DNA of 64,000 nt. Source: Giardia intestinalis. Its lineage: Eukaryota. Under the pieces are notes generated by a model. That model did no database searches, was not told the origin of the DNA, and was given only the letters and a program-made list of their open reading frames with translations. Where the stretch lies: assembly GCA_000002435.2 (NCBI GenBank), contig CM018792.1; one strand, given 5' to 3'. The position numbers and the translations under genes are program-made. This document shows, piece by piece, positions 22,626 to 48,320 of this stretch (its first letter is position 1; each line of letters begins with the position of its first letter).

Positions 22626-22694
22626 CACGTACGCCAGTTGCGGCCAGCTGGTTAATTTTTTGGGGTGGTCTGTTTCTTTACCGCTACAACTGAA

Positions 22695-28600: not shown

Positions 28601-31600
28601 TTGAGGCAAGATCCTTCAGAATAACTATGACCAGATGGTTAAGCCGCCGCTGCCGCTGCTCCCATGGAAGTTTTGCGATAAGCTTACTAAGCGTTGTTGC
28701 TAACAGGTACCGATTCTGCGTTGTTCCCAGCCGCCTATTGATATATCTTTGCACTTGTGGTATGAAAATGCGGGAAACATGCGATAGAACCTGCGCAGGC
28801 GCGTAATCAGTGATGGAATTGAAGAGTAGCTGGAGAGGATCTGGGCTGCTCTCTACTGCTTCTGACTGATCCTTCTGAGTCTTTTCTATAGCTGTGGCAA
28901 TGACGAGGTCGTTCTTCCTAATATAACTAGCTGTTCGCATCCCACTAAGTGCTTTTTCAAACTCCTGGTTTTCCTGCTCTGCGTCAGGACCATTTTCTTT
29001 GGATGAAGTGTCAAAGCCGACGGTGAGTGATGTGTTAGGTGCACTGAGAAGGTTAAGTGAAGGGTGATTTCCTGACCCATCTCTAGCATCATCTGCAATG
29101 CTCGTATCACCGCTATCACTGGAGACCTCCAGCTCAGACTCGTTCGACGATTCAGTATCATCGCTGTCAAAGCTTTCATTTTGAGTAGCTGAAGAATTCT
29201 TTGAAGCTGTGATAAATCGGAAGTTGTCGAGAAGCGAGTTCAGAGCCTGTATGAGCCTGCCCTCGTTGGGTGAACTGTTGACCTGGCCGAGAAGGTAGAG
29301 AAGAACTGTCCTATAGCGTGCCCAGTCTAGATAAAGGCCACAAGCAGCCAGAAAATTCAAAAACATGGTATCCAACTTGTCGTCATTAGCAATAAGACAC
29401 TCTTGCAGAGATATGGGGATGAGGATGTTTGTAATAATGTTCTGATTTAATCGACAGCCAAATGCGTTGCTCATAATGAGTCTGCCTAATAACGTATTGC
29501 ACAGAAATGAAAATACATTGCCGAATGCGCTTATGCGAGCGGACGCAGAAGCATCTGCCAACCTGACAAAATCAGTCAGCTGATAAACGCAGAGATAATC
29601 AGGGCGTGCTGCATTGGCCAAACACCTTAATGATGGCATAGACCACTGGGCAGCCGAGTCCAATTCACGATCGAAGTTGAACTCTTCATCCAAAAGAACG
29701 GCCAAGTCTTCGGCACTAAGCATCTCACGCACATCACAGAGAAGCCTTCTGTCAGCACCATATCCTGCATAAACCTGCATAAACGACAGGAGCTCTGAAC
29801 GCCCTCTCCTCCGCTTGCTATCAAGCTGCGTGCTATGTGCGACGGTCTGACTTATATAAGCATGTACGTAATTCAAGAGCAGCACCTGTGCGGCCCTCCA
29901 CGAGTCTCTATGCTCAGAGTCTTCTGCTGGAGGTTTTAAGGTGAACGTACGAAGCAGTGTCGATGCCGCACTGCGCTCTGCATCAGACCCCTCGGTAAGG
30001 AAATGAAGAGCCATCCCTAAGGCCATTTTTGAGTGGCACAGGTAGGCGGAGAGGTGTTGGATGCTCTCCAGTCGCGATTCGTTATGGGGTATCCCGAGCT
30101 TGTAAAGCAAGGTGTATATCTCTGCATGGTCTCGAAGGGAGAGGGTGCTGGCTTTTGAGTATACTTCTGAAGGGATATTTAGGGATTCTATGGCCTCCAC
30201 GGTTCCGTAACACCGAAAGAGCTTGGCAAGGACTGGTCTGGCATCCACAAGCTTATTCTTCATAACAAGAGGAAGGAGAAGATTGTGCGTGCACAGAGGA
30301 GAAGCAAATTCATAAAATCTAAGGATTGCACCTGAAACTTCTGTGCTGTCGGCGTTAAGGGCGTAATGGAAAATTTCGCAAAGCTCCTCGATGATAGGAG
30401 TGATGACATTGAACCGCTTGCTCTCTGCATCGCACAAAAGCAATGTATGAACAGTGGCCAAAGATTCACGGCAGAGAGACGACACCAGGTTCTCAGGCAT
30501 GGTATATCCTATTGTGAATTCTCTAAAGTACTTTGTAGAAAGCCTTTTTCGTAAACAAAGGAGCAACCGTTCTGTAAATTCCTTCTTAATACTTGGAAGC
30601 TTCTCCAAAAGAAGGGTATACTCAGGCGTATCGAGAGTCTGCGTGCAGCTGTCCAACAATGCGGTGGCCAACGTAGTGAAAACTCGCAGGATCGTTAAGC
30701 TCTGCTTAGGATGAGGGCGCAAGTGGACTAGAAGGTCGTCTATAAACAAGTAATTCCATTGCATGTAACGCTCGACTCTAAGAGGATATCTAGATAGGAC
30801 AGTATACATCCTAACCAGGCTATTGGAGCACGGCTCTGACTCATTCTTAATGTGGAACTTACTGATCAGCGTATAAACTACCTTGAAAAAGGTCAGAGTG
30901 CTCTGTCGAGCACCGGTGTTGAATATCTCCTGGAGGCGTGCCTCTGAGTCTGTAATTTCAAGACAGCAAGTGATAAAGGTTCTGATCGTACGGAGAATGG
31001 TGCTTCTGATAAGATCAATCTCGATGCCGTCGATGTCCACCCCTTGGTGGGGGATTTTCTTGGCCTCATTCCGTGCGACGGCATCTGCACGATAGGTATC
31101 CAAAGAGCTATTGTACCAATCTGTCAAGTGTGTATGCGCATCCAGGTCAAAGAACCAGAAAGTAGCGAGAATGAGCACCACGTGCAAATACGCAGTTGTA
31201 ATGTAGGCGCTTGAGATGTACGGGAGCATCATTGTGCATGTGTTACAGAAGCCTCGGATCATGTTTCCGTGAACGTTGGGGACTCTAGCAGCTAGCCCAC
31301 ATATGTCCTCTAGATCGACCCTATGGAGAAGAAACTCAACTATCTCTGCCTCTGTGCCGCCAATGATAACGTCGTGGAAGAGCTTACTGAAAATAGGAGC
31401 GATGAGAATCCCGTACATGCGGTTGCGCTCTCGTGGGTCCATGTTTTGCTCCGCAAATGCGAAAATGGTGCGGCGCCTACTGTCATCAGAGCCGACAGAC
31501 CGTCCTCCGACGGCAGCATTTGCGACGCCTGAAATATAGTTGAAGCTCCTGCCTGTGCGGACAACCTTTCCCGCCATGAGATAGAGTGCAATGTCCATGA

Positions 31601-34600
31601 AATCTGCCCGGTAGGCTTCGTGTATGAGGGAAATTCCGCCATAGTCACGCTCATACATCTGCTTTCTGGACAACTTCTTGGTACAGAGCTCATATAGCTC
31701 ATCGAAGCCGGCTCTAGTAAGCTTGTACGGTGGCTCTGCGACCTCGCTGCCGCTAAAGCGGAGACTTAAGAGCTGATCAGTAAAAGTCTGCAAATTGGCC
31801 ATGCGTCCCAATACGTGAATGAAGGGGGCCTTAGTCAAGAAGTAGTAGAGAATTACGCAGTTAGGAACCATGTACTCTAGCGAGGCAGTAGAGAAGACGA
31901 GCTTAATCGCTCCCATTAATTTAGCGCGCGAATCATCTACAATGCGGTCTGCCAAGAGACAAAAAAGCTTGCTCATTAGGTCCATTGAACGGGAATGAAT
32001 CTCAGAGCCTTCATAGCCTTCACTAGTGTTTCCAAGGTTAATACGCTTAACATAGGCGGCGATCAGCCCGCACACACAAGCATCGGAAAAGATATTAGTG
32101 AAGTGTGTCATCCAAATCGCCTTTTCAGCAAGAAGTGTCACAATCTTCAAACTCTCCGAGGGAAGAATCGTGTTAACGCCTATGTACTTAATCGTATTTA
32201 TTCCCAGTAGAAGCTGTGCAACCACCTTACTAGTCAATAGATGGGTTGATCGAACTGTAGCCTTGTCAACGAGCAAATTGAGGCGGACAGCAATCTGCTC
32301 CCGCTCAGCCGTCATGATTCTGGCACGGAACTTATTGTCAGAGCGATATACCCGCTCCTCTGCTCCCTGATCATCTTGGCCATCTAACGTATAGGGATAA
32401 GGGTACTCTGCCTCCATAGAGAAGTTATGAATCAGTTCAAACACAGGGTTCTTGACCTCATAAGCAGTAAGCTCGAATACGAATTTCCAGAGATAGCGCT
32501 CGAACACGTAGGAGACTTCTGCCGGACGCATCTCGGCAAATAAACGCAGCAAGTCAATAGCGCCGTCGGCTACAGGTGCAAAGCGCATGTAGAGAAGTCC
32601 ACATGTCGCCGCTGCAACGATGGATATTACCCTGGCAGAGTCGTCGTTGGCCTTAGCAGATGAGACCTCCAGGAAGCCTAACAGCTGCTTCTGCAACTGT
32701 GTCATTATATGCTGGACTTCAAAAACATTCGTAAGGGGAAAGAGGCTGGCATACTGACCAATAATAGCAAACCCGCGTGAGGCACCCCCGAGTAAACTCA
32801 CTATCTTCAACATCGATCGTCTCATGACACCATTGGGAGATGTCAGCATGATTAAAGGTAGTTCGCTGTTTAAAAGGGTTGCATATAGCTCGTCCAGCGA
32901 AGCACCAGCCAGCCGTGTTGCCAGAACGTCGAAAAGAGAGTCGTACTGGATGGAGACGATAGACTCGAGTAATGTAAAGAAGTACTCTGGTGAACCAGGG
33001 GTGACCTGAATTAATAGAGAAAGCAGGGTGGTGATAAGAGCACCTTGCGTTGTAAGCACCGCGGGCTTCTTAGCTATTCTGCCTACAGAAAGCATATTCA
33101 AATACGATGCATCAATGCTTTGCAAGAGAGACTGCAGCGCTTGCGTATGCTTTCTACTGAGCAACGAGCGCGAATATAGACAGGCTAGGACAGTGCACAA
33201 CATAGATCCTGTTTCGTTCTCCAGCTCATGGACAAAGTCCCTTTCGATTGCTTCTACAATTGCGTCGAGTTCTGAACCGGAGGGCGAATCACAGACTCCT
33301 TCGCAGAAAAGGTAAAGACGAATGTACGGGGAGTGATCCTCTGAAAGAGAAGAGCTGTACACACTTTTGAATGTGTCTATAAAGATGTCCCGTTTGTGGT
33401 GCCTTGAAAAGTCCTGAACCATGACATAGAGAGAGTAGAACACGTTATAATTGCATAGGTCAGCATGAAACTGTTTGAAAAAGGTTGCTACTAAGTCATC
33501 CTTGCATTCTGCGTGGAGAGAGGTAGAGATAGCCAACAAGCACAAAGTCAGTAAGTAAAGGCTCCTATTCAAAGCTTCTTTGTTCGCCACAATCAAGTGA
33601 TAAAGGTCATTAATACCGGAAAACGTCATCTTATTGGGGTAGAACATTGCAAGAGAGAGTAGTGCGTTTTGAGTCTCATGCTGCTGAGAAGGGTCTGACA
33701 GCAGTTTCAGTGCGTGTCCAGTAATAGATAGAATAACCTGTGATAGTGCAGATGAATCCATTTCTGCCTCTGCGAAGAGCGTGGTTAGATCAACAAGCCA
33801 GTTCTCGGTATCTGACTTCGGGATAGAGAAATAGGAGCCAATAATGATATCAAAACGACTATGCAGGGTTCCGTCAGGGTGGCGGCACGCTAGAAGAAGT
33901 ACTAGATTAGCCATTGTTGACTCAAGGGGCCCGGCGATCGACGTGAAGATCTCAGACATACAGTCGTCGTGGCGGGAGTGAACTCTGACAAGATACGCTG
34001 GTATCTCCGCCAAGCCTGGCCATAGCATACGCTCCATCTGTTCCACATAGGAGAGAATTGCACCCCAAATACCCTCGGGTATGGCCCCGCCTAGATACTT
34101 CAGAGAAAGAAGTAGGCTTTGAATTGCCCCCACAAATAACTCTGGATGCTTGCACACGCCATTGAGACGTAAAAGTGTGAGGCTTGTGAGAATAAAGTGC
34201 TTATTACTAGGCCCCAGGTCACGGAAAAGGTCAGGCAGCGCGCGAATGATGCTCAAATAAACGGTCTTGCTTGCTATGAAATCCGAGCTATTAGGATCCT
34301 CGAGTGTTAGCGCATTTAAGGCATTCTCAATAATGGAAAAGAGACCATCTGGATCATACAAAACCTGCACCAACAGTCTATAGTTGAGCATCACGTCGTC
34401 ACAGAGAGACAGAAACACTCCGTGATCGTTGCCAGCCTGAAGCTCTTCCAGCTTAGCAGAAAACAAGGATATCCGCTGGTCTTCTGGGAGATCCGTGTCA
34501 TAGTGCTTACTCCGCGTGGAGTCAATGTTGAAGTGGGCCATGAGAGAGAAGTAATCATGGTATTTGGTGGTCTTGGTCCGAGTGTCGTAGATCGGTGTGA

Positions 34601-34631
34601 GCTGGTCCCTCTGCTGATCTCTGCGGGGCAT
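25686..34631 (-). CDS. Giant 2981-aa hypothetical protein, probably an alpha-helical (HEAT/ARM-like) scaffold
   Basis: A single uninterrupted ORF with a verified ATG. It is Leu-rich and helical throughout. No P-loop, kinase, RING or WD signatures were seen. Confidence 0.5.
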   Translation of the reverse strand: MPRRDQQRDQLTPIYDTRTKTTKYHDYFSLMAHFNIDSTRSKHYDTDLPEDQRISLFSAKLEELQAGNDHGVFLSLCDDVMLNYRLLVQVLYDPDGLFSIIENALNALTLEDPNSSDFIASKTVYLSIIRALPDLFRDLGPSNKHFILTSLTLLRLNGVCKHPELFVGAIQSLLLSLKYLGGAIPEGIWGAILSYVEQMERMLWPGLAEIPAYLVRVHSRHDDCMSEIFTSIAGPLESTMANLVLLLACRHPDGTLHSRFDIIIGSYFSIPKSDTENWLVDLTTLFAEAEMDSSALSQVILSITGHALKLLSDPSQQHETQNALLSLAMFYPNKMTFSGINDLYHLIVANKEALNRSLYLLTLCLLAISTSLHAECKDDLVATFFKQFHADLCNYNVFYSLYVMVQDFSRHHKRDIFIDTFKSVYSSSLSEDHSPYIRLYLFCEGVCDSPSGSELDAIVEAIERDFVHELENETGSMLCTVLACLYSRSLLSRKHTQALQSLLQSIDASYLNMLSVGRIAKKPAVLTTQGALITTLLSLLIQVTPGSPEYFFTLLESIVSIQYDSLFDVLATRLAGASLDELYATLLNSELPLIMLTSPNGVMRRSMLKIVSLLGGASRGFAIIGQYASLFPLTNVFEVQHIMTQLQKQLLGFLEVSSAKANDDSARVISIVAAATCGLLYMRFAPVADGAIDLLRLFAEMRPAEVSYVFERYLWKFVFELTAYEVKNPVFELIHNFSMEAEYPYPYTLDGQDDQGAEERVYRSDNKFRARIMTAEREQIAVRLNLLVDKATVRSTHLLTSKVVAQLLLGINTIKYIGVNTILPSESLKIVTLLAEKAIWMTHFTNIFSDACVCGLIAAYVKRINLGNTSEGYEGSEIHSRSMDLMSKLFCLLADRIVDDSRAKLMGAIKLVFSTASLEYMVPNCVILYYFLTKAPFIHVLGRMANLQTFTDQLLSLRFSGSEVAEPPYKLTRAGFDELYELCTKKLSRKQMYERDYGGISLIHEAYRADFMDIALYLMAGKVVRTGRSFNYISGVANAAVGGRSVGSDDSRRRTIFAFAEQNMDPRERNRMYGILIAPIFSKLFHDVIIGGTEAEIVEFLLHRVDLEDICGLAARVPNVHGNMIRGFCNTCTMMLPYISSAYITTAYLHVVLILATFWFFDLDAHTHLTDWYNSSLDTYRADAVARNEAKKIPHQGVDIDGIEIDLIRSTILRTIRTFITCCLEITDSEARLQEIFNTGARQSTLTFFKVVYTLISKFHIKNESEPCSNSLVRMYTVLSRYPLRVERYMQWNYLFIDDLLVHLRPHPKQSLTILRVFTTLATALLDSCTQTLDTPEYTLLLEKLPSIKKEFTERLLLCLRKRLSTKYFREFTIGYTMPENLVSSLCRESLATVHTLLLCDAESKRFNVITPIIEELCEIFHYALNADSTEVSGAILRFYEFASPLCTHNLLLPLVMKNKLVDARPVLAKLFRCYGTVEAIESLNIPSEVYSKASTLSLRDHAEIYTLLYKLGIPHNESRLESIQHLSAYLCHSKMALGMALHFLTEGSDAERSAASTLLRTFTLKPPAEDSEHRDSWRAAQVLLLNYVHAYISQTVAHSTQLDSKRRRGRSELLSFMQVYAGYGADRRLLCDVREMLSAEDLAVLLDEEFNFDRELDSAAQWSMPSLRCLANAARPDYLCVYQLTDFVRLADASASARISAFGNVFSFLCNTLLGRLIMSNAFGCRLNQNIITNILIPISLQECLIANDDKLDTMFLNFLAACGLYLDWARYRTVLLYLLGQVNSSPNEGRLIQALNSLLDNFRFITASKNSSATQNESFDSDDTESSNESELEVSSDSGDTSIADDARDGSGNHPSLNLLSAPNTSLTVGFDTSSKENGPDAEQENQEFEKALSGMRTASYIRKNDLVIATAIEKTQKDQSEAVESSPDPLQLLFNSITDYAPAQVLSHVSRIFIPQVQRYINRRLGTTQNRYLLATTLSKLIAKLPWEQRQRRLNHLVIVILKDLASTDQDARAACRRCLSHISMLLGPRNLGTILLSIRTHCAKEFIGVHLAAYVYYEILEHVIMVPHRTLLAVIQNPSIILKLPYVDTSSCNVSPLPDAITPISLRQVIAVLVRDMFSAQAQEQKARSLLSIKHIEVGESRSADIIRLTAASLSFSNITQTVFFIEPLFRGCAYSFSSTQQDAIVHSLLAGWFVNSTVTEDALLEFVHYMMSPKCFYHALIPQIVDACNKLTKQEKIINARVEEDDLRRARAITDIRNEHLLLEPSPKRLYQGIGSISGGFSGVGSSYDTTVPHKLVGALLRHGIEKHYGDPYVHEYMPYFAAIASGTEESVHALPHAAQDPIATLPPPALRAPTISAERYPEIADYVLLMLSSRAAFCRASGFHSLAAMMPNYPTVRTKLIASECCKALYRTSDRQELEACFRLINVILTNDYDLFSTEDYSLIVKVSSLMLNKSLKSLLAFHMIQLIVEKNIDVPEIYETMTYFCKVAAMVEGHEQTASLVKALSHFIVTYEMTHKKRIVYIRNLLKVAAEFETNAGRRVVLACLHEVYRGLDAETLSGCVDISVVSFVVTISNCSQLAEGSDQVVSEAMQTLAVFIKRCEDTGYQRCPLYFIRSILANEKVLPQQTSVLILLSCLSETILSVADAEDVQEHVADACISALTTLLEVVVDLQDAVFGKMRKTRDNIDFVAASFRLFASVIQLLSLAPDFEAKYNALFVQLQGFFAEDTYRSVLLSAAPDLRSRSLTVCNILLSHVQEQPSSGSAEASLKPFLYLIEPYILSIGDTLLTNLDKHRTAVILGDLLCASAKDADASHYKVLNAFRLVDSTLLEIPASHPHLKISLIGAVLCFFSKFQKEDQCLLELLTKAFIQTLLRLRYFHTVETDPRYETAEEFEERNPEVLHERHVCDIVNSTLDKLEQISTGTRSFTELLSESEQAVDAEPFEPPERRFRRPVKKNSVLEAMLKVSYYIGDKD

Positions 34632-36822: not shown

Positions 36823-38283
36823 ATGTCCAGCAATATCTACACAGCGCTTATGGAAGCCGCTCGAAAGGGCGACATGATCGCCTTGCGTCAAAATTTAAGA
36901 CAGCAGGCCAGGTTGAAGGACAACTTGGGCGTTACTGCGCTGATGTATGCAGCACAGGCGGGACGCTATGAAGCCGTTTCGCTCTTAGCTGAGTATGAGG
37001 CTGGGATGCAAGATTGGCGTGGGAAGACTGCTCTTATAACTGCTATTCAGAACGGGCACGCAGAGGTTGCCCGCATTCTGGTTCCCTACGAAACCGGACT
37101 GCGCGATACGGATGGCGCAACTGCTCTCATGAGCGCCGCCAGTATGGGGTTCAGTAGTCTCATTCAGGAGCTCCTGGAGAAAGAGGTAAAATGCGTAGAC
37201 GACAACGGAAAGACGGCCCTCATGTATGCCGCTGAATCAAACCAGGTTGATGCCGTCAGGATCCTTCTCAAGCACGAAGCAGGGATTCGGGACTCTAGTG
37301 GTCAGACCGCAATGATGTACGCTACCGTCAGCGGCAATATATCAGTCATTGAGCTTCTTTTGGGCTATGAAGCAGGGGTCTGCAAGGACAACGGCTGGTC
37401 CTGCCTTATGACCGCGGCTAAGTTGGGCAATTTTGAAGCTGCCGAGCTTCTGGCTCCAAAGGAGGCTTGCTTAGCAAAGCAGAACGGCATGACAGCACTT
37501 ATGGTTGCCGCACAATTCGACCACGAAGACATAGTGCGTCTCTTAATGGCTGCAGAGGGAAATATGGTTCGGAAAGACGGCCTGTCAGCAAGAAACATTG
37601 CTTCTCAGTTTGGAAACCACGACGTTGCAGATCTTCTCGCCAACTCCACCCACCTTTTTCTCCCGCCAAATCCCTCTGTTTCAGCAAAGTCTTCCAGAAA
37701 CGCTAACGGGCCCAGACCAGAAAATGATCCAAGCAAGGCCTTTACCTCCTCGACCCTCATGCCTCCTCAGCGGCATCAGTATCCCCATGCTCCGACAACA
37801 CCAACTACCAGGGGCGTGACTAAGCGGGAAGGCCATCAAGGACCCGGTGGATATAGCACGCCTGCATTAATAGAAAGCAACCATAATAACAGCAGTCATC
37901 CCGATGGCAACAATTCAAAGCTTGTAGAAAGCTACATTCTCTCTGAGGCCTCGCAGTTTGATAACATTACTTTGAACGCAACGCTAATGGATTCGGTTCA
38001 CTCGGGCCACTCTGCTTCCAATAATTCTAAAATACTAAAACTTATAACAGAAATAGATTGTAAAGATTGCGAGATCGACGCATTAAAAAAGCAGGTAACG
38101 CAGCTCCAAAACCAATTGTCCCACAAAGCAGACGGACTAGTGGATATAAAAGCTGACTATGTTTCTCAGGCTAGGCAGCTTCAGAAGATGGCCGAGTACA
38201 TGCTCGAATTTGCCAACGAAATTGAGCCTGGCATTAATTATATGAACTCGGCTACTACGCAGAAGTCTGATGCACTGAAATAG
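36823..38283 (+). CDS. Ankyrin-repeat plus coiled-coil protein, of the Giardia 'protein 21.1' type
   Basis: The track start is a GTG at 36811 and the first ATG is at 36823. There are at least six ankyrin repeats ('TALMYAAQAGRYEAVSLL', 'GKTALITAIQNGHAEVARIL' and others). A C-terminal coiled coil is present. The AGTGAAT polyadenylation motif sits 16 nt after the stop. Confidence 0.7.
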   Translation: MSSNIYTALMEAARKGDMIALRQNLRQQARLKDNLGVTALMYAAQAGRYEAVSLLAEYEAGMQDWRGKTALITAIQNGHAEVARILVPYETGLRDTDGATALMSAASMGFSSLIQELLEKEVKCVDDNGKTALMYAAESNQVDAVRILLKHEAGIRDSSGQTAMMYATVSGNISVIELLLGYEAGVCKDNGWSCLMTAAKLGNFEAAELLAPKEACLAKQNGMTALMVAAQFDHEDIVRLLMAAEGNMVRKDGLSARNIASQFGNHDVADLLANSTHLFLPPNPSVSAKSSRNANGPRPENDPSKAFTSSTLMPPQRHQYPHAPTTPTTRGVTKREGHQGPGGYSTPALIESNHNNSSHPDGNNSKLVESYILSEASQFDNITLNATLMDSVHSGHSASNNSKILKLITEIDCKDCEIDALKKQVTQLQNQLSHKADGLVDIKADYVSQARQLQKMAEYMLEFANEIEPGINYMNSATTQKSDALK

Positions 38284-38298
38284 TCGATAAGCTGTACT

Positions 38299-38305
38299 AG
38301 TGAAT
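38299..38305 (+). promoter_or_regulatory. Putative Giardia polyadenylation signal (AGTGAAT, which matches AGTRAAY) 16 nt after the stop of the ankyrin gene
   Basis: A direct sequence match in the position expected for Giardia 3' ends. Confidence 0.35.
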
Positions 38306-38766
38306 CTAGCATTTACTCCGTTTCAGAAAGTGACCTCATCAGCTGCAGCCCAAAGGCTGTCATCTGGGCCTCCCGAGTAACTGCTGGTCTTACATAGACT
38401 CACTTAGGTATTGCTCAAAGCACACTTCTTACACTCTGAACAGGAAGATATAGGCTGTCCCCAGATCTGCTCTCAAGGTAAAAGACTCACCTGGCTGTTG
38501 TCGGCCAGCTGAACCGTGTTCTTAGGGAATCGAGCAAGATAATCGCTTGCCGAAAAATAATCTGAAGGCTCGTTGATAAGTGAGACCTTCGGATACTCCA
38601 TAGTATCTGTTACTGACCAGAAGGGCGTGTTACATTCATATGTGTCTAGCTGGTGTCGGACGAGATAGTATTGGCAGATAGTCGGTGTCTGTGATTGCCA
38701 TTTATCCACAAGGCGACACTGCTCTTCTAGTCAGTCTATCATCTGCTCCTTGGCCTCCTTCACCGT

Positions 38767-39792
38767 GTGCCTCTGCTCAGACACTCTGAGCTTCCCGACT
38801 TCAGAAATATCATTGGGTATGGAGAGGATAGGACATCGTACATCATCTGCGGCACCCCCGGGATCGTCTCTGCTCTCCTTACGGCAGTCAAGCCGGCCTC
38901 GGGCACAGGTATCGCCTCCCGTGGAGCAACCTCGTTCCTGAAGCTGCGGCACGTGGTGATAGACGAGGCAGACCACATCCTCCTCAACGACAACACGTCC
39001 TTCCTGGCGCTCATCAGGGAGTTCTTCGCTCAACGGAACTCCACGGCCGTCTTCCGCGTGCCTCTCTTCTTCGCCCAGCGACACCGCCTTGGGCTTCCGA
39101 CGGACAGGTTTGTCTTCCTCTCTGCGACCATGAAGTACCGGGCGAGCCTGCTCGAGAACATGGGCCTCCACGGCGGGTGCATGGTGGACTTCGACGAGGG
39201 CCACGCGCGCCTTGCCCTCTCGCCCAACGTCGAACACTTCGTCGTCCAGCTCAAGCGGGTCTACTCCGAGATAGACATCACATACCTGGTCTTCAGGTTC
39301 CTCTGCAGCCCCGCCGGGTCCATCACCAACTCGAGGACGACCCTCCTGCCCTGCATCGTCTTCGTCAACTCCAGGCACACCGCGCAGCGCATCGCTCACC
39401 TGCTGTTCCTGATGATGATCAAGGTTTACAAAGAGCTCTGGTACAGGATAACGCTGGTGGCCCAGGGGCACGTCTTCCGGAGGCCGAACTTCGAGTCTGT
39501 CCCGGCCATCTCCAACGAGTCCCTCGAGGAACACCCTGCAACGATCGTCTTGGCAACTGATAACTTCGCCCGTGGGCTCGACCTTCCTGCGGTTCGCTCG
39601 GTGGTCAACTTCGATCCGAGCCGGGTCGTCTCCATAGACGAGAAGAGCCTCTGCGACTACCGGAGCACAGAGGGACCGCGGCTGTCCGACTTCTCCGTCG
39701 GGGACAGCGACGTGCTGGAGATCTCACGGAGGTTCAGCGAGAACACGGACATCTACCTGACCACCCTCTACGACGGGGAGTTCGGGCGCTAG
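38767..39792 (+). pseudogene. DEAD-box RNA-helicase-like ORF that lacks the N-terminal Q, Walker A and Ia region, so it is a probable gene fragment or pseudogene
   Basis: Motifs appear in canonical order: 'IICGTPGIV' (Ib), 'VIDEADHIL' (II), 'FLSATM' (III), 'IVFVNSRHTAQRIAHLL' (IV), 'LATDNFARGLDLP' (V) and a degenerate VI 'YRSTEGPR'. The frame is closed by TAG at 38728-38730, only 13 codons upstream. The track 'start' is a GTG and there is no AxTGSGKT motif. Confidence 0.45.
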
Positions 39793-39795
39793 GCG

Positions 39796-41706
39796 CTACA
39801 CGCCCTTGTGCGGAAGGTTCAGGTTGAGCGGGCTGTGGAAGATGTACTCCGGCGCGCAGAAGTAGTACTGCATGCAGTACCGGCCGAGGAAGAAGATGAC
39901 GATGGCCAGGGCCCCCACCAGGACGTAGTTCCACGCGCTGACCTCGAGGGCCTCGCACATCGTGCCCCCGTGCGCGTCGACCGTGTCCAGCCCGTTCACG
40001 CACCGCTTGACCTTGTTGTTGAACGGGGAGGCGCGGACGGCGTCTGCGATGGCGACCTTCTGGGCCTCGTCGGGCGCGGAGAGGAAGAGCGGGTGGACGC
40101 CGTCGCGGTCGGGCCCGTAGAAGCGGGGCATCGTGTACTCGACGGTCAGCTCGTGGCAGAGCGAGTTGGAGCCGCGGCCGATGTAGTAGTAGCCCGAGAC
40201 GCCCCAGCCGGTCCCCCACGAGTTGCGCAGGATCCAGACGGGCCGGCCCTTGTACGCCCCGTAGCCGACGAGCATGACCTGGTGGTTCGTGGTCGCGCGC
40301 ACGCACTTGACGTCGGGGAAGACGCCGCCCTTGTAGAGGTTGAACGTCAGCGCAGAGGCGACGACGGACTCGTAGTCCTTGTCGATCGACGTGTCGACGC
40401 CGGACTCTGTGTGCATGGCCGCCGCGACCCCGACCCCGCGGGCCAGGACGTTCATGACGTTCCGCTCCCACTCGGCGAACTTCCCCTTGTCCATCTCCTC
40501 GATGATGAGCCCCGAGGCCGGCACGCCCTCGTTCCGCAGGATCTGGTAGACGCCGAACTTATTTGGTGTCCCTGAGCCACCATTGACATCATACTCGTAT
40601 TCATCGCTACCTGCAGCCCCAGAATTAGAAGAGCTGCCCTTCTTCTTCATCGGCATGGAGACGAAGGCAGGGTTGAAGTCTCCTATATTGGCGTCCTGAC
40701 ACTTAGCACCATTGTCTGGGGCGGCCTTTTCGGGCGTCGCGTACTCCCTGTAGATGCACTCGGACTCCTTCGCGAGCTTGCTCAGCTTGTTGACGAAGTC
40801 TGCGATGGCGCGGAAGTAGTTTCCCCCGTTGCAGTAGTTCCCGCCGATGAGGTTGTCGAGGAGGAACTGGACGGAGAGGCGCAGGGTGGACGCGCTGTAG
40901 GACTTCCAGTTCTCGGGGATGTCGGTATACTCTTTCTCAGTACGATTTTGAACAGTTATCATTGCAGCGCAGTCATTACTCTTCTGACTGTCATCCTGGC
41001 TCGCAGGGGCCGAGCAGTTGCAGAAGTAGTTCGACGGAAAGGGCTGGGGATCGAGGTACTTCCCCCTCGTGTAGAGGTCTGCGTCGACGAGCATCAGGTT
41101 CTCGAGGACCTCGATGGTCGTGAACTCGTAGCAGGAGCCGCACAGGCCCTGGTCCTTCGCGCGGGTCACGAGGCCCACCTCGCGGAGGTCGACGGAGTGG
41201 GGGAGCGTCCGCTGCCTGTCTTTGACGTTCATGTCCCGCACGTCGACGAGGAAGAAGCTGTCCTGCTTCTTGCTCTTGTCGTCAGCGTTAGCACTCTGTG
41301 AATTAGCTTGAGTGTCTCCCTTCAGGTCCGGCCCCAGCTCGTAGGCATCGACGTTGCAGTTGGTGTACTTATTGGTTTTATTAGTCCAGTTGCACGCATC
41401 TGCAGCTGCGCTCCACTCGCCGCCCCCCAGCGACCGGGGCGGGAGGATGCCGGCGCGCGGGTGGCGGTCCATCCGGGACGTGATCCCGAAGGTGACGTGC
41501 TCGTGGCCCTCCCGGCGGAGCCTGCGGAGGTGCTCGAGGTGCATGCAGAAGTTCCGCTCCGCCTCCAGCCGGTCCCCGGGCGTGTCGTAGGCCTTCCCGT
41601 AGAGGCCGACGAAGCGCTCGAAGGCATGCTCGCACGCCATGTGGATGCTGAACGGGTCCCGCTCGGCCGATGCCGCGCAGAGGAAAGACAAAGTAAGCAG
41701 CAACAT
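39796..41706 (-). CDS. Cathepsin L-like papain-family cysteine protease carrying an I29 propeptide, large insertions and a C-terminal transmembrane helix
   Basis: A signal peptide 'MLLLTLSFLCAASA' is followed by an ERFNIN-like propeptide ('ERNFCMHLEHLRRL...VTFGITSRMD'). The catalytic residues are present: 'KDQGLCGSCYEF' (Gln and Cys), 'NHQVMLVGYG' (His) and 'NSWGTGWGVSGYYYI' (Asn). An insertion of roughly 150-190 aa sits between the Cys and His segments. The C-terminal hydrophobic stretch is 'YVLVGALAIVIFFLG'. The ATG start was verified. Confidence 0.7.
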   Translation of the reverse strand: MLLLTLSFLCAASAERDPFSIHMACEHAFERFVGLYGKAYDTPGDRLEAERNFCMHLEHLRRLRREGHEHVTFGITSRMDRHPRAGILPPRSLGGGEWSAAADACNWTNKTNKYTNCNVDAYELGPDLKGDTQANSQSANADDKSKKQDSFFLVDVRDMNVKDRQRTLPHSVDLREVGLVTRAKDQGLCGSCYEFTTIEVLENLMLVDADLYTRGKYLDPQPFPSNYFCNCSAPASQDDSQKSNDCAAMITVQNRTEKEYTDIPENWKSYSASTLRLSVQFLLDNLIGGNYCNGGNYFRAIADFVNKLSKLAKESECIYREYATPEKAAPDNGAKCQDANIGDFNPAFVSMPMKKKGSSSNSGAAGSDEYEYDVNGGSGTPNKFGVYQILRNEGVPASGLIIEEMDKGKFAEWERNVMNVLARGVGVAAAMHTESGVDTSIDKDYESVVASALTFNLYKGGVFPDVKCVRATTNHQVMLVGYGAYKGRPVWILRNSWGTGWGVSGYYYIGRGSNSLCHELTVEYTMPRFYGPDRDGVHPLFLSAPDEAQKVAIADAVRASPFNNKVKRCVNGLDTVDAHGGTMCEALEVSAWNYVLVGALAIVIFFLGRYCMQYYFCAPEYIFHSPLNLNLPHKGV

Positions 41707-41759
41707 CCGGTCCTTTTTTGGGCCGCGGGTAGGTTAGCCGTGTGCGGGACTTGCACACC

Positions 41760-42524
41760 CTACCGGGTCGCAGACAGGAAGAGGAGCCCGAAGAAGACGG
41801 CCGTGCTCGCCGTCACCCCCGCCACGGCCCCGATGTTCCTCACACGGCAGTCACATAGATCCCTGTGGTAGCCCTCGGCACAGACACAGGCATCCTTGTA
41901 GCACTCCCCGTGTCCTGTGCACACACTCCCAGCCAGACGAGTGTTCAGGTACTTCTTGCTGGCGCACAGCTGGCCATGGGGGACCGCGTCCTCGTCGCAC
42001 TGGCACGCAAGGGCGGCTGTGGCGTTCTGCACACACGTCCTGCCCCTTGCCTTGGGCGTCCAGTTGCAGGCAGCCCCGTTCTTCACGCACTGGGCGTGCA
42101 CGCACGTGCTGTTCAGCATCACAAAGCCGTCCTCACACTTGCACAGGTACTCTCCATCACTGTATAGGCATTCTCCGTGCGGGCACACAAAACCCGTGTC
42201 CGAAACACACCCCGCCGGGGCGCACCCGTGGTCCGGAATGTGCTTGAATGGTGGCACGCACAGACACTGGTGTCTCGCCGTGGAGTGGTCCAGTCGGCAG
42301 AGCAGAGAGCTCGTCAGGTTTGCCACGAAGCCGTCGGTGAGGATCGTGCTATTGTTGTTTCTGATGCTCTTATCAAGCATGTGGGGGTATCCGCAGAGCC
42401 GCTCTCCGACGACGCACTCGGCCGGGTAGCACAGCCCCTCGGGGGGAGTAGTCCTGGCAGGCGCCTGCGGGCTGTCTTGGTTGTCGGCTTCGGCTGCTGC
42501 CCTCGAGAGAACCCTGGGCTGCAA
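41760..42524 (-). CDS. EGF-like high-cysteine membrane protein with a C-terminal transmembrane helix. Its 5' end is uncertain.
   Basis: EGF-like modules are present ('CTGHGECYKDACVCAEGYHRDLCDC', 'CVHAQCVKNGAACNW'). The C-terminal TM is 'AVAGVTASTAVFFGLLFL'. The track start is a TTG and there is no N-terminal signal peptide. An in-frame TAG at 42549-42551 separates it from an upstream same-frame ORF. Confidence 0.45.
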   Translation of the reverse strand: MQPRVLSRAAAEADNQDSPQAPARTTPPEGLCYPAECVVGERLCGYPHMLDKSIRNNNSTILTDGFVANLTSSLLCRLDHSTARHQCLCVPPFKHIPDHGCAPAGCVSDTGFVCPHGECLYSDGEYLCKCEDGFVMLNSTCVHAQCVKNGAACNWTPKARGRTCVQNATAALACQCDEDAVPHGQLCASKKYLNTRLAGSVCTGHGECYKDACVCAEGYHRDLCDCRVRNIGAVAGVTASTAVFFGLLFLSATR

Positions 42525-42996
42525 CGCACTGCCACTTCCCGAGGATTCCTATGCAGTGCCTACTTCCTCGTGGGTAGAGCGGGCATAGAGGCACGGTCTT
42601 GCCGCAGGATCCAGTGGATGCTTGGAGACAGGTGACCCAACGATTTCGTAAAATAGCGCCGCAGAGGCCATGGAGCGAGCAGATGCAATAGGCAATGCGT
42701 TTACTACCGAGACGCCCTGCCCCTGCAGGTGGGCCCAGTGATACAGTGACAGCAATGTACAGGAGTGCACCCCGACCAATCACTCCACAAGAGAGGTGCG
42801 ATCTGAGTCCGGCCCTCACTGGTCCTGTTCCTATGGAAGTCAGAGAGAACTGCGCTATCAGCTGGCCTCCGGTTGGTGTGCTCCTATCTCGTCCTTCTCC
42901 AGTCCAACTGATCAAGAGAGCAAGAGCGGCTGTCTCTCACTGCTCGCGGTCAATGCACAAGTCTGGTGAAAGAGCAGTGGCATACGAACCCGGCTA

Positions 42997-45900
42997 ATGT
43001 TGATAGGATTTCTCCTAGTTTGTGCAACCGTGCTGGCAAAGAACAGCGGGAAGACCGCATGCGTGGCGGCCTCTAACACAGCATGCGCAGCAGCCCTGGA
43101 CACGGCGGGCTGCAAGACCTGCGGCCCCGACGCCCAGACGTGCCTGGACTGCAAGACTCCTGGCGAGAACGTGCAGCTCGATAAAAGAAGCTGCAAGGCC
43201 AACTGCCCGCAGAACTCCTCCCCCAACCAGAACGTCTGCGAGTGCGACCCGGGATTCAGCCTGAACAATGGAAAAGACGCGTGCGAGGCGGTTGCCAACG
43301 TCAACTGCGCAGCAGCCCTGGACACGGCGGGCTGCAAGACCTGCGGCCCCGACGCCCAGACGTGCCTGGACTGCAAGACTCCTGGCGAGAACGTGCAGCT
43401 CGATAAAAGAAGCTGCAAGGCCAACTGCCCGCAGAACTCCTCCCCCAACCAGAACGTCTGCGAGTGCGACCCGGGATTCAGCCTGAACAATGGAAAAGAC
43501 GCGTGCGAGGCGGTTGCCAACGTCAACTGCGCAGCAGCCCTGGACACGGCGGGCTGCAAGACCTGCGGCCCCGACGCCCAGACGTGCCTGGACTGCAAGA
43601 CTCCTGGCGAGAACGTGCAGCTCGATAAAAGAAGCTGCAAGGCCAACTGCCCGCAGAACTCCTCCCCCAACCAGAACGTCTGCGAGTGCGACCCGGGATT
43701 CAGCCTGAACAATGGAAAAGACGCGTGCGAGGCGGTTGCCAACGTCAACTGCGCAGCAGCCCTGGACACGGCGGGCTGCAAGACCTGCGGCCCCGACGCC
43801 CAGACGTGCCTGGACTGCAAGACTCCTGGCGAGAACGTGCAGCTCGATAAAAGAAGCTGCAAGGCCAACTGCCCGCAGAACTCCTCCCCCAACCAGAACG
43901 TCTGCGAGTGCGACCCGGGATTCAGCCTGAACAATGGAAAAGACGCGTGCGAGGCGGTTGCCAACGTCAACTGCGCAGCAGCCCTGGACACGGCGGGCTG
44001 CAAGACCTGCGGCCCCGACGCCCAGACGTGCCTGGACTGCAAGACTCCTGGCGAGAACGTGCAGCTCGATAAAAGAAGCTGCAAGGCCAACTGCCCGCAG
44101 AACTCCTCCCCCAACCAGAACGTCTGCGAGTGCGACCCGGGATTCAGCCTGAACAATGGAAAAGACGCGTGCGAGGCGGTTGCCAACGTCAACTGCGCAG
44201 CAGCCCTGGACACGGCGGGCTGCAAGACCTGCGGCCCCGACGCCCAGACGTGCCTGGACTGCAAGACTCCTGGCGAGAACGTGCAGCTCGATAAAAGAAG
44301 CTGCAAGGCCAACTGCCCGCAGAACTCCTCCCCCAACCAGAACGTCTGCGAGTGCGACCCGGGATTCAGCCTGAACAATGGAAAAGACGCGTGCGAGGCG
44401 GTTGCCAACGTCAACTGCGCAGCAGCCCTGGACACGGCGGGCTGCAAGACCTGCGGCCCCGACGCCCAGACGTGCCTGGACTGCAAGACTCCTGGCGAGA
44501 ACGTGCAGCTCGATAAAAGAAGCTGCAAGGCCAACTGCCCGCAGAACTCCTCCCCCAACCAGAACGTCTGCGAGTGCGACCCGGGATTCAGCCTGAACAA
44601 TGGAAAAGACGCGTGCGAGGCGGTTGCCAACGTCAACTGCGCAGCAGCCCTGGACACGGCGGGCTGCAAGACCTGCGGCCCCGACGCCCAGACGTGCCTG
44701 GACTGCAAGACTCCTGGCGAGAACGTGCAGCTCGATAAAAGAAGCTGCAAGGCCAACTGCCCGCAGAACTCCTCCCCCAACCAGAACGTCTGCGAGTGCG
44801 ACCCGGGATTCAGCCTGAACAATGGAAAAGACGCGTGCGAGGCGGTTGCCAACGTCAACTGCGCAGCAGCCCTGGACACGGCGGGCTGCAAGACCTGCGG
44901 CCCCGACGCCCAGACGTGCCTGGACTGCAAGACTCCTGGCGAGAACGTGCAGCTCGATAAAAGAAGCTGCAAGGCCAACTGCCCGCAGAACTCCTCCCCC
45001 AACCAGAACGTCTGCGAGTGCGACCCGGGATTCAGCCTGAACAATGGAAAAGACGCGTGCGAGGCGGTTGCCAACGTCAACTGCGCAGCAGCCCTGGACA
45101 CGGCGGGCTGCAAGACCTGCGGCCCCGACGCCCAGACGTGCCTGGACTGCAAGACTCCTGGCGAGAACGTGCAGCTCGATAAAAGAAGCTGCAAGGCCAA
45201 CTGCCCGCAGAACTCCTCCCCCAACCAGAACGTCTGCGAGTGCGACCCGGGATTCAGCCTGAACAATGGAAAAGACGCGTGCGAGGCGGTTGCCAACGTC
45301 AACTGCGCAGCAGCCCTGGACACGGCGGGCTGCAAGACCTGCGGCCCCGACGCCCAGACGTGCCTGGACTGCAAGACTCCTGGCGAGAACGTGCAGCTCG
45401 ATAAAAGAAGCTGCAAGGCCAACTGCCCGCAGAACTCCTCCCCCAACCAGAACGTCTGCGAGTGCGACCCGGGATTCAGCCTGAACAATGGAAAAGACGC
45501 GTGCGAGGCGGTTGCCAACGTCAACTGCGCAGCAGCCCTGGACACGGCGGGCTGCAAGACCTGCGGCCCCGACGCCCAGACGTGCCTGGACTGCAAGACT
45601 CCTGGCGAGAACGTGCAGCTCGATAAAAGAAGCTGCAAGGCCAACTGCCCGCAGAACTCCTCCCCCAACCAGAACGTCTGCGAGTGCGACCCGGGATTCA
45701 GCCTGAACAATGGAAAAGACGCGTGCGAGGCGGTTGCCAACGTCAACTGCGCAGCAGCCCTGGACACGGCGGGCTGCAAGACCTGCGGCCCCGACGCCCA
45801 GACGTGCCTGGACTGCAAGACTCCTGGCGAGAACGTGCAGCTCGATAAAAGAAGCTGCAAGGCCAACTGCCCGCAGAACTCCTCCCCCAACCAGAACGTC

Positions 45901-47805
45901 TGCGAGTGCGACCCGGGATTCAGCCTGAACAATGGAAAAGACGCGTGCGAGGCGGTTGCCAACGTCAACTGCGCAGCAGCCCTGGACACGGCGGGCTGCA
46001 AGACCTGCGGCCCCGACGCCCAGACGTGCCTGGACTGCAAGACTCCTGGCGAGAACGTGCAGCTCGATAAAAGAAGCTGCAAGGCCAACTGCCCGCAGAA
46101 CTCCTCCCCCAACCAGAACGTCTGCGAGTGCGACCCGGGATTCAGCCTGAACAATGGAAAAGACGCGTGCGAGGCGGTTGCCAACGTCAACTGCGCAGCA
46201 GCCCTGGACACGGCGGGCTGCAAGACCTGCGGCCCCGACGCCCAGACGTGCCTGGACTGCAAGACTCCTGGCGAGAACGTGCAGCTCGATAAAAGAAGCT
46301 GCAAGGCCAACTGCCCGCAGAACTCCTCCCCCAACCAGAACGTCTGCGAGTGCGACCCGGGATTCAGCCTGAACAATGGAAAAGACGCGTGCGAGGCGGT
46401 TGCCAACGTCAACTGCGCAGCAGCCCTGGACACGGCGGGCTGCAAGACCTGCGGCCCCGACGCCCAGACGTGCCTGGACTGCAAGACTCCTGGCGAGAAC
46501 GTGCAGCTCGATAAAAGAAGCTGCAAGGCCAACTGCCCGCAGAACTCCTCCCCCAACCAGAACGTCTGCGAGTGCGACCCGGGATTCAGCCTGAACAATG
46601 GAAAAGACGCGTGCGAGGCGGTTGCCAACGTCAACTGCGCAGCAGCCCTGGACACGGCGGGCTGCAAGACCTGCGGCCCCGACGCCCAGACGTGCACGGC
46701 CTGTACAGAGGCTTCCAACAATGTACAGATTGACAAGAAGAGCTGCAAGGCCGACTGCCCGTCGAACTCTGCAGCCAACGGCCAGCACGTCTGCGAGTGC
46801 GCCGTTGGGTACCAGCCGACTCCCGGGCAGAACCAGTGCGAGAAGGCCCCTAACACGCAGTGCAATACTCCCAACTGCAAGACCTGTGACAACCCCAAAA
46901 CAGACAACGAAATCTGCACTGAATGTAATGATGGCAACTACCTCACCCCGACAAAGCAGTGCACGCAGAGCTGCGGAGCAATAGGAAGCTACTACAACGG
47001 AGACAAAGTGTGCGAGCCTTGTGATCCTAGCTGTGCTGGGTGCACCACAAAGGGGCCAGCGAAGTGCACAGCTTGTCCTCCCGGGAAAATGCTAAAATAC
47101 ACCAATGATGATCCTAATCAAGGTGGATCCTGCGTAGATGAGTGCAAAGCAGAGATGGACGGGTGTGCAGAGTGTGGAGCGGTAATCGGCGGTACGAAGT
47201 ACTGTTCAAAATGCAAGGAAGATAAGTGGGCACCTCAGAATGGCGTGTGCGCTAATTCAGTAACAAGGAATTCATTCTGCACGAACGCAGCAGGTGGCGT
47301 ATGCACTCAGTGTGCTGCAGATCATTTTCTTCAAGATGGAGGCTGCTATAAACTCGGTAGACAGCCTGGTGTCCAGATATGTGCAGCGGCGGGTCCCAAT
47401 AGCCTGTGTACTACGTGCGTAAATGGACAGAGACCAGATACCAATACTGGAGCCTGTCCTGTGTGTCCAACAGGTTGTGACACATGTACAGGGACATCCT
47501 CGCGGGCGCCCGAATGCCAATCTTGCCTTCTGGGATACTATTTCGATTCTGATAAAAAGCTGTGTGTGAAATGTACCGAGAATAGTAGTGCTATTCAAGG
47601 TGTTAGCAGCTGTGTGAGCTGTAGTCCTCCATCTAATAATCAAGGATCTGTCGTCTGCTACCTCATAAATGATAGCGGTAGCACAAACAAGAGTAGCAGG
47701 CTCTCCACTGGGGCCATCGCTGGCATCTCCGTTGCTGTGGTCGTTGTTGTAGGAGGGCTTGTTGGCTTCTTGTGTTGGTGGTTCCTCTGCCGCGGGAAGG
47801 CGTAG
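42997..47805 (+). CDS. Variant-specific surface protein (VSP) of 1602 aa, carrying about 16 tandem 74-aa repeats
   Basis: The ATG start was verified and is followed by a signal peptide 'MLIGFLLVCATVLA'. CXXC motifs are frequent. A GGCY motif ('FLQDGGCYKL') is present. The C-terminal TM helix is followed by the invariant tail 'CRGKA'. An AGTAAAC polyadenylation motif sits 21 nt after the stop. Confidence 0.85.
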   Translation: MLIGFLLVCATVLAKNSGKTACVAASNTACAAALDTAGCKTCGPDAQTCLDCKTPGENVQLDKRSCKANCPQNSSPNQNVCECDPGFSLNNGKDACEAVANVNCAAALDTAGCKTCGPDAQTCLDCKTPGENVQLDKRSCKANCPQNSSPNQNVCECDPGFSLNNGKDACEAVANVNCAAALDTAGCKTCGPDAQTCLDCKTPGENVQLDKRSCKANCPQNSSPNQNVCECDPGFSLNNGKDACEAVANVNCAAALDTAGCKTCGPDAQTCLDCKTPGENVQLDKRSCKANCPQNSSPNQNVCECDPGFSLNNGKDACEAVANVNCAAALDTAGCKTCGPDAQTCLDCKTPGENVQLDKRSCKANCPQNSSPNQNVCECDPGFSLNNGKDACEAVANVNCAAALDTAGCKTCGPDAQTCLDCKTPGENVQLDKRSCKANCPQNSSPNQNVCECDPGFSLNNGKDACEAVANVNCAAALDTAGCKTCGPDAQTCLDCKTPGENVQLDKRSCKANCPQNSSPNQNVCECDPGFSLNNGKDACEAVANVNCAAALDTAGCKTCGPDAQTCLDCKTPGENVQLDKRSCKANCPQNSSPNQNVCECDPGFSLNNGKDACEAVANVNCAAALDTAGCKTCGPDAQTCLDCKTPGENVQLDKRSCKANCPQNSSPNQNVCECDPGFSLNNGKDACEAVANVNCAAALDTAGCKTCGPDAQTCLDCKTPGENVQLDKRSCKANCPQNSSPNQNVCECDPGFSLNNGKDACEAVANVNCAAALDTAGCKTCGPDAQTCLDCKTPGENVQLDKRSCKANCPQNSSPNQNVCECDPGFSLNNGKDACEAVANVNCAAALDTAGCKTCGPDAQTCLDCKTPGENVQLDKRSCKANCPQNSSPNQNVCECDPGFSLNNGKDACEAVANVNCAAALDTAGCKTCGPDAQTCLDCKTPGENVQLDKRSCKANCPQNSSPNQNVCECDPGFSLNNGKDACEAVANVNCAAALDTAGCKTCGPDAQTCLDCKTPGENVQLDKRSCKANCPQNSSPNQNVCECDPGFSLNNGKDACEAVANVNCAAALDTAGCKTCGPDAQTCLDCKTPGENVQLDKRSCKANCPQNSSPNQNVCECDPGFSLNNGKDACEAVANVNCAAALDTAGCKTCGPDAQTCLDCKTPGENVQLDKRSCKANCPQNSSPNQNVCECDPGFSLNNGKDACEAVANVNCAAALDTAGCKTCGPDAQTCTACTEASNNVQIDKKSCKADCPSNSAANGQHVCECAVGYQPTPGQNQCEKAPNTQCNTPNCKTCDNPKTDNEICTECNDGNYLTPTKQCTQSCGAIGSYYNGDKVCEPCDPSCAGCTTKGPAKCTACPPGKMLKYTNDDPNQGGSCVDECKAEMDGCAECGAVIGGTKYCSKCKEDKWAPQNGVCANSVTRNSFCTNAAGGVCTQCAADHFLQDGGCYKLGRQPGVQICAAAGPNSLCTTCVNGQRPDTNTGACPVCPTGCDTCTGTSSRAPECQSCLLGYYFDSDKKLCVKCTENSSAIQGVSSCVSCSPPSNNQGSVVCYLINDSGSTNKSSRLSTGAIAGISVAVVVVVGGLVGFLCWWFLCRGKA
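43070..46692 (+). repeat. Tandem array of a 222-bp coding repeat (74 aa) inside the VSP gene, with about 16.3 units
   Basis: All three overlapping reading frames repeat perfectly every 222 nt; for example the alternate-frame 72-aa ORFs at 43268, 43490 ... 46598 are identical. The first unit is slightly divergent ('VAASNTACAAALD...'). The array ends where the protein sequence changes to 'CTACTEASNNVQIDKK'. Confidence 0.85.
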
Positions 47806-47825
47806 ATTTAACTGTACACTTAGGT

Positions 47826-47832
47826 AGTAAAC
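47826..47832 (+). promoter_or_regulatory. Giardia polyadenylation signal AGTAAAC (AGTRAAY) downstream of the VSP gene
   Basis: An exact motif match 21 nt after the TAG at 47803-47805. Confidence 0.45.
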
Positions 47833-48320
47833 GTATTATATCGACGGATCCCGTTAGGGGCTGCCTGAGTGCCATTCCTGACTGCACAGTCTGTGCTCTG
47901 AGACAGCGCCTAAATGAGTCTAGATAAAGCCAGCAGTTACTTCGGTACTCTGGGAGGCCAGTAGGCAATGCGATCAATCACAGCTAACGGGGTCACCTTC
48001 TAGAACAGAACGAGTGGAAGAAGTCAAACTGACGGGTTTTAGTGAGGCACTTTTAAAAATCTTTAGGCTTGGATTTGGTGATAGAACATCCAGGCACAGT
48101 AGAGGAAACAACAGAATATGTAGTCACCTGTTCACTCTAGTTAAGATGGCTTGACTGCGAAGTTTAGTAAGGTGGATGTATTGTACGCATAGAAGGTGCT
48201 ATTAGTGTGTCTAAGAACCAGTCGATAGTAAGGGCGGCGCATTTTTCTCATGTACACGAACACGTGTTAAATCTGCTCCTGAGAACGGCATTTAAAAAGT
48301 ACTTATATTGTCGTCGGTGA

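Follow-up and report, generated by a model that had tools for sequence, protein, structure and literature searches.

A solitary Giardia intestinalis VSP gene with sixteen identical 222-bp repeats and its most likely one-unit counterpart in an older catalogue

Organization of the VSP gene and its neighbourhood

The DNA analysed here is a stretch of 64 kb (hereafter the window) taken from AACB03, the PacBio reference assembly of G. intestinalis WB-C6, and it contains no letter N. An open reading frame (ORF) of 4809 nt at 42997-47805 on the plus strand encodes a protein of 1602 aa and carries, in frame, a tandem array of 222-bp units. The features recognised in and around this ORF are as follows.

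42995..43001, plus strand: Kozak-like initiator TAATGTT overlapping the ATG (sequence and pattern scan; Table S1 of the 2022 catalogue)
42997..47805, plus strand: complete VSP coding sequence, 1602 aa, about 165 kDa, identical to GL50803_0050169 / XP_037901976.1
42997..43038, plus strand: hydrophobic N-terminal leader MLIGFLLVCATVLA, putative signal peptide (translation)
43057..43083, plus strand: pre-array stretch ACVAASNTA, similar to the unit end ACEAVANVN, a putative degenerate partial unit at the 5' edge
43084..46635, plus strand: 16 nucleotide-identical 222-bp units (repeat finding and direct comparison)
46636..46857, plus strand: diverged 17th unit (direct comparison and published consensus units)
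46858..47712, plus strand: non-repeated Cys-rich ectodomain with CXXC motifs and GGCY at aa 1448, 89% identical to WB vsp23 (XP_001709308) (translation)
47713..47802, plus strand: conserved transmembrane segment followed by the cytoplasmic tail CRGKA (translation, motif scan and published table)
47818..47832, plus strand: extended VSP polyadenylation signal ACTTAGGTAGTAAAC (pattern scan; Table S6 of the 2022 catalogue)

Analysis of the deduced protein indicated that it contains 212 Cys residues, or 13.2%, where about 11-14% is the value used for VSPs, together with 48 CXXC motifs. The Pfam VSP family (PF03302) matched the ORF with 269 bits (E=8e-80), the cut-off being 31.4 bits. The start codon lies within TAATGTT, one of the two forms of the VSP initiator (T/C)AATGTT, and the VSP poly(A) consensus ACTYAGRTAGTRAAY, found shortly after the stop codon of VSP genes, is represented by ACTTAGGTAGTAAAC, which begins 12 nt past the stop codon and is the sole match to such a motif in the 64-kb window. 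The array conforms as well to the tandem-repeat subclass of VSPs, which is defined by in-frame units of 105-516 bp with the first one 66-99 bp from the ATG; this distance is 87 bp here. Every sequence-level VSP feature that was tested is thus present in the ORF.

Comparison with the protein databases revealed that the ORF product is 100% identical over all 1602 aa to KAE8303846.1 / XP_037901976.1 / UniProt A0A644F5E7, a record named "VSP" from G. intestinalis ATCC 50803 WB clone C6 and located on a contig of 2,761,001 bp. The corresponding gene, GL50803_0050169, is listed by Rodriguez-Walker et al. 2022 (10.1101/2022.03.07.483299) on NC_051859.1, chromosome 4, with 4809 nt, 1602 aa, the initiator taatgtt, 212 Cys, 48 CXXC and the tail CRGKA; in the same work its signal peptide is marked "Y" (a SignalP call) and its poly(A) motif is given in Table S6. 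The 222-bp unit of the window is, letter for letter, item 9 of the "Consensus" sheet of Table S2 (10.1101/2022.03.07.483299), so that GL50803_0050169 and the window locus are the same gene with the same 222-bp consensus and with no difference between them. Public annotation and a published catalogue thus already cover the gene as well as its class and the precise repeat consensus, and within a class that has been described in detail the gene is nothing unusual: tandem repeats occur in 36 of the 136 VSPs of WB (10.1101/2022.03.07.483299), and 30 repeat-bearing WB VSPs, with units of 105-516 bp starting 66-99 bp past the ATG, had been reported by Adam et al. 2010 (PMC2996952). A first-pass annotation made from the letters alone had called the locus a VSP gene, had placed it in a known class of repeat-bearing VSPs and had advised comparison with the catalogued VSPs. 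The Pfam match, CRGKA, TAATGTT, the poly(A) signal and the full identity with XP_037901976.1 bear out the first of these points, the two catalogue counts the second, and the comparison, now carried out, led to consensus no. 9.

No further VSP-like sequence was found within the 64 kb, and the gene is therefore solitary and outside any linear array of VSP genes. Its neighbours are ordinary genes, coding for an ankyrin-repeat protein, a papain-family protease, a Rho-GDI and an amino-acid transporter. The region 38000-48000 is GC-rich (0.55-0.63, against 0.46-0.50 in the rest of the window) and holds the VSP, the protease gene upstream of it and about 1.3 kb (41.7-43.0 kb) in which no ORF is recognised by Pfam; this agrees with a published remark that the surroundings of VSPs are gene-poor. 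The protease ORF (39796-41706, minus strand, 636 aa) matches Pfam Peptidase_C1 (papain family, E=6e-31); its product is hydrophobic at both ends, the N-terminal part being a leader, and also carries a long insert. The gene lies immediately 5' of the VSP, on the minus strand, and looks like one for a membrane-anchored cysteine protease. Next to it, an ORF of 341 aa with a GTG start (38767-39792, plus strand) gave weak matches to DEAD (E=6e-4) and Helicase_C (E=6e-5) and may stem from a helicase gene that is truncated or misphased, or be a pseudogene, and the 267-aa minus-strand ORF that overlaps it gave no match. Two very large ORFs were also observed in the window, both on the minus strand, at 25686-34631 (2981 aa) and 17364-22628 (1754 aa).

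The 222-bp array and its relatives

Tandem Repeats Finder detected one array, inside the VSP ORF, at 43084-46695, with a period of 222, 16.3 copies, 100% matches, 0% indels and a score of 7224. Direct comparison showed that each nucleotide equals the one 222 positions downstream across 3390 consecutive positions, and that the 16 units of 222 bp have zero mismatches, i.e. 0 differences in 3552 nt; the array consists of 16 exact copies followed by the initial 60 bp of a 17th. Such a periodicity cannot have arisen by chance. Each unit encodes a module of 74 aa with 10 Cys, 2 CXXC and one NSS sequon, and since 222 is 3 x 74 and the DNA periodicity is exact, all the reading frames repeat, trivially. 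The first-pass annotation had put the repeats at 43.07-46.69 kb within an ORF at 42997-47805, estimated about 16 copies of a 74-aa Cys-rich module and held the units to be identical at the DNA level; its coordinates proved accurate, the module that it quoted is the one encoded by the ORF, and both the copy estimate and the claim of identity agree with the comparison given above.

The edges of the array differ from its interior. Alignment of the 60 nt preceding the array with the final 60 nt of the unit gave 29/60 matches, mostly in the last ~27 nt, and the nine residues ahead of the array may accordingly represent a degenerate partial unit. The first 60 nt of the 17th unit are those of the array unit, and all 88 of the 222 positions that differ lie beyond nt 60; the remaining 162 nt contain 38 nonsynonymous and 6 synonymous codon changes relative to the array unit. 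Past nt 60 the 17th unit is closer to the repeat type of GL50803_50181 than to its own array, the identity with that type being 74% at the nucleotide level over the whole unit. The chimeric structure of the 17th unit suggests that an old recombination event left its junction at this 3' edge.

For the DNA-level comparison between arrays the published consensus units, rather than the loci, were used. The array unit was 89% identical to the GL50803_50165 consensus, with 24 nt differing, and 60-70% identical to the consensus units of GL50803_50066, 50289, 50181, 38901, 50290 and 112693. Comparison of the GL50803_50169 unit with that of 50165 gave 14 nonsynonymous against 2 synonymous codon differences (dN/dS about 1.2), with none of the ten Cys altered, which hints at diversifying change at positions outside the scaffold. 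GL50803_0050165 (XP_037901961.1, P0002) is, like the gene of the window, a repeat-bearing VSP of the same chromosome with the same leader and poly(A) motif and a 222-bp / 74-aa unit, but in that gene the transmembrane region comes directly after the array, without a unique Cys-rich segment in between. Other genes likewise have arrays of identical or nearly identical units: the 13 modules of P0002 are all the same at the protein level, and the 12 of P0003 fall into 3 distinct kinds. A profile HMM of the module found single copies in about 55 of 124 VSP relatives, P15 and assemblage B proteins included, so the repeat represents a module widespread among VSPs that has here been amplified. The protein search yielded no orthologue above 89% in other isolates.

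Among the classical repeat-bearing VSPs, VSPA6/CRP170 (a 195-bp unit, ~23 copies), VSPC5 (105 bp, >20 copies) and CRP136 (120 bp, 22 copies) share with the window gene a short 5' segment (66-99 bp), in-frame and near-identical Cys-rich repeats and a conserved 3' end. They differ from it in the length and the sequence of the unit, and also in that their expression, immunodominance and allelic copy-number variation were shown experimentally, whereas the window gene is known from its sequence. The number of repeats is reported to vary between alleles in vspA6 and vspC5, and the vspA6 repeat to be immunodominant (PMC2996952).

Uniform units inside the array, altered ones at its edges and divergence from the paralogous arrays fit unequal exchange or gene conversion within the array as the proposed mechanism. 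Unequal exchange between sister chromatids or alleles, slippage during replication or gene conversion would then keep making the tandem copies alike and resetting their number, and arrays at separate loci would meanwhile diverge from one another.

Copy number and the older catalogue

VSP repeat copy numbers have been described as "approximate" owing to condensation during assembly (PMC2996952), and the first-pass annotation had warned that the number of units may depend on the assembly. The gene was compared with the catalogue derived from the 11x Sanger assembly (2007/2010). None of the TR222 entries of the 2010 catalogue fits GL50803_0050169, and the entry vsp13 (TR222; 93 Cys, 18 CXXC) agrees with a version of the paralogue GL50803_50165 that has about nine units. 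The row for vsp18, on the other hand, lists chromosome 4, TAATGTT, 492 aa, 50.5 kDa, 62 Cys, 12.6% Cys, 18 CXXC and no repeats (PMC2996952), and GL50803_0050169 cut to one unit has exactly these values: 492 aa, 50.5 kDa, 62 Cys, 12.6% Cys and 18 CXXC. The nearest relatives of the gene are vsp23 (XP_001709308, 89% over the C-terminal 80%) and AS7/vsp21, and vsp18 was grouped with vsp21/AS7, vsp23 and vsp95 by Adam 2010 (PMC2996952). All the values listed for vsp18 thus equal those of a one-unit GL50803_0050169, the likeness being one of table values and not of sequence, and vsp18 differs in being listed without tandem repeats, which amounts to 1 unit against 16. No old-assembly protein equal to the one-unit version was present among the protein matches, the best of which was vsp23 (89%), as would be expected if vsp18 never had a gene model; in the 2010 table vsp18 has no gene number. 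From the table values, vsp18 is most likely GL50803_0050169 with its array collapsed to one unit by the Sanger assembly, in keeping with the warning mentioned above. This probable equation is the sole addition made here to existing knowledge. An entry that stands as non-repetitive in the widely used 2010 catalogue would then most likely be a 16-repeat gene, and the counts and sizes of repeat-bearing VSPs derived from short-read or Sanger assemblies would be underestimated.

AACB03 was produced from PacBio RS II reads (200x coverage, read N50 12.7 kb) with HGAP and Quiver and validated with an optical map, and Illumina data contributed only 50 SNP and 85 indel corrections genome-wide (PMC7000408). 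With a read N50 of 12.7 kb at 200x, single reads span the 3.6-kb array, and on these published assembly data 16 is probably the dominant copy number. Copy-number variation among the four genome copies is possible, given that VSP regions are enriched in structural variants.

Two other readings of the array were considered. The array may be in part an artefact of assembly or polishing, the true copy number not being 16 or differences between units having been erased by consensus calling. This would be in line with the dependence of VSP repeat numbers on the assembly noted by Adam 2010 (PMC2996952), with the apparent single unit of the old assembly, with the tetraploidy of Giardia and the enrichment of structural and allelic variation in VSP regions, and with the multi-mapping of 75-bp Illumina reads inside the array. 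We regard it as unlikely, because many uniquely anchored reads would span the array and an optical map supports the assembly, the Illumina fixes were so few, an independent array of the same assembly also has identical modules, and near-identical VSP repeats had already been described in earlier Sanger-based work. An equally small probability is given to a true difference in copy number, either from one WB-C6 stock to another or within the set of four genome copies, as the cause of the contrast between 1 and 16 units. Were it true, the array would expand and contract on laboratory time scales and generate size variants of one antigen, and the nonsynonymous excess relative to the neighbouring GL50803_50165 array (dN/dS about 1.2) would be the mark of selection favouring novel epitopes in the repeats. 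Collapse of the array in the old assembly remains the preferred reading.

Predicted module, proposed role and alternative explanations

A model of two consecutive units was built with AlphaFold2 from an alignment of 29 rows containing natural module pairs and single modules. The model (mean pLDDT 90.8) consists of short beta-hairpins in a repeated pattern. The best Foldseek matches in the PDB were the furin-like repeats of R-spondin, the EGF array of Pfs25 and the Cys-rich regions of ErbB and the insulin receptor; the top match had E=2.5e-3 and a probability of 0.97, with TM-scores of 0.25-0.35 and no match at E<=0.001. Pfam cEGF reached 111 bits summed, above its cut-off, but no single stretch passes, and TNFR-like families also exceed the cut-off when summed. 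The predicted disulfide-rich ladder of beta-hairpins thus resembles furin-like/EGF-like repeats (R-spondin Fu1-Fu2, ErbB, the insulin-receptor CR and Pfs25), the likeness being structural only, with matches below threshold. Each unit is plausibly a disulfide module of this furin-like/EGF-like kind, and an ectodomain built from sixteen such units would be long, rod-like and multivalent.

The deduced order of elements is that expected of a type I membrane protein, which would comprise the signal peptide, 16 modules, one diverged module, a CXXC-rich unique region, the transmembrane helix and CRGKA. By analogy with other VSPs, the gene would belong to a set of about 136 alternative coat genes, only one of which would be on show in a trophozoite at any time, and the array would lengthen the ectodomain, present one epitope 16 times and raise the protein to about 165 kDa. 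The multivalency of the epitope and the mechanism of homogenisation are both drawn from what is known of other VSPs. Taken as a whole, the account of the locus as the solitary VSP gene GL50803_0050169 of chromosome 4, with a role in the coat, a homogenised array and a history of collapse in the old assembly, is very probable.

An alternative is that the gene is a silent reservoir copy, intact in appearance but never used as the coat protein, whose repeats have no antigenic role. The peptides assigned to GL50803_0050169 in the 2022 re-analysis are all non-unique, and in the main texts of the literature searched neither its gene identifier nor its protein identifiers are mentioned, both of which would agree with silence. 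The proteomic support is confined to the "non-unique" class because reads and peptides of the array are not uniquely assignable, and for the same reason the gene would be under-counted in RNA-seq pipelines restricted to uniquely mapping reads. Against a silent copy speak the uninterrupted 4.8-kb ORF with its signal peptide, initiator, poly(A) signal and CRGKA tail all intact, the classification as a VSP and not as a pseudo-VSP both in the 2020 annotation and in the 2022 catalogue, and the fact that, relative to the paralogous array, the Cys residues and the scaffold are kept while other positions change; we therefore consider a silent copy improbable. The chance that the periodic sequence is a non-coding satellite, or that it codes on the opposite strand, is negligible. 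Two minus-strand frames of the 222-bp unit have no stop codon, and as a consequence two antisense ORFs of 1341 and 1257 aa, at 42912-46937 and 43015-46788 respectively, span the array and stay open. These end just beyond the array, as a mechanical product of a stop-free, GC3-rich unit, and only the plus frame runs from an initiator ATG and signal peptide to a transmembrane segment, CRGKA and poly(A) signal with a Pfam VSP match. A VSP gene with a role in the coat remains the reading that we prefer.

The GC content at third codon positions (GC3) differs strongly within the gene, being 0.84 in the repeat module, 0.80 in the 17th unit and 0.37-0.60 in the C-terminal unique region. GC-biased conversion during amplification was considered as the source of the high value and rejected: GC3 is just as high in the 17th unit, which is not amplified (0.80), and in units of the paralogous arrays (0.78-0.88) as in those of this array (0.84), and so goes with the module type rather than with amplification.
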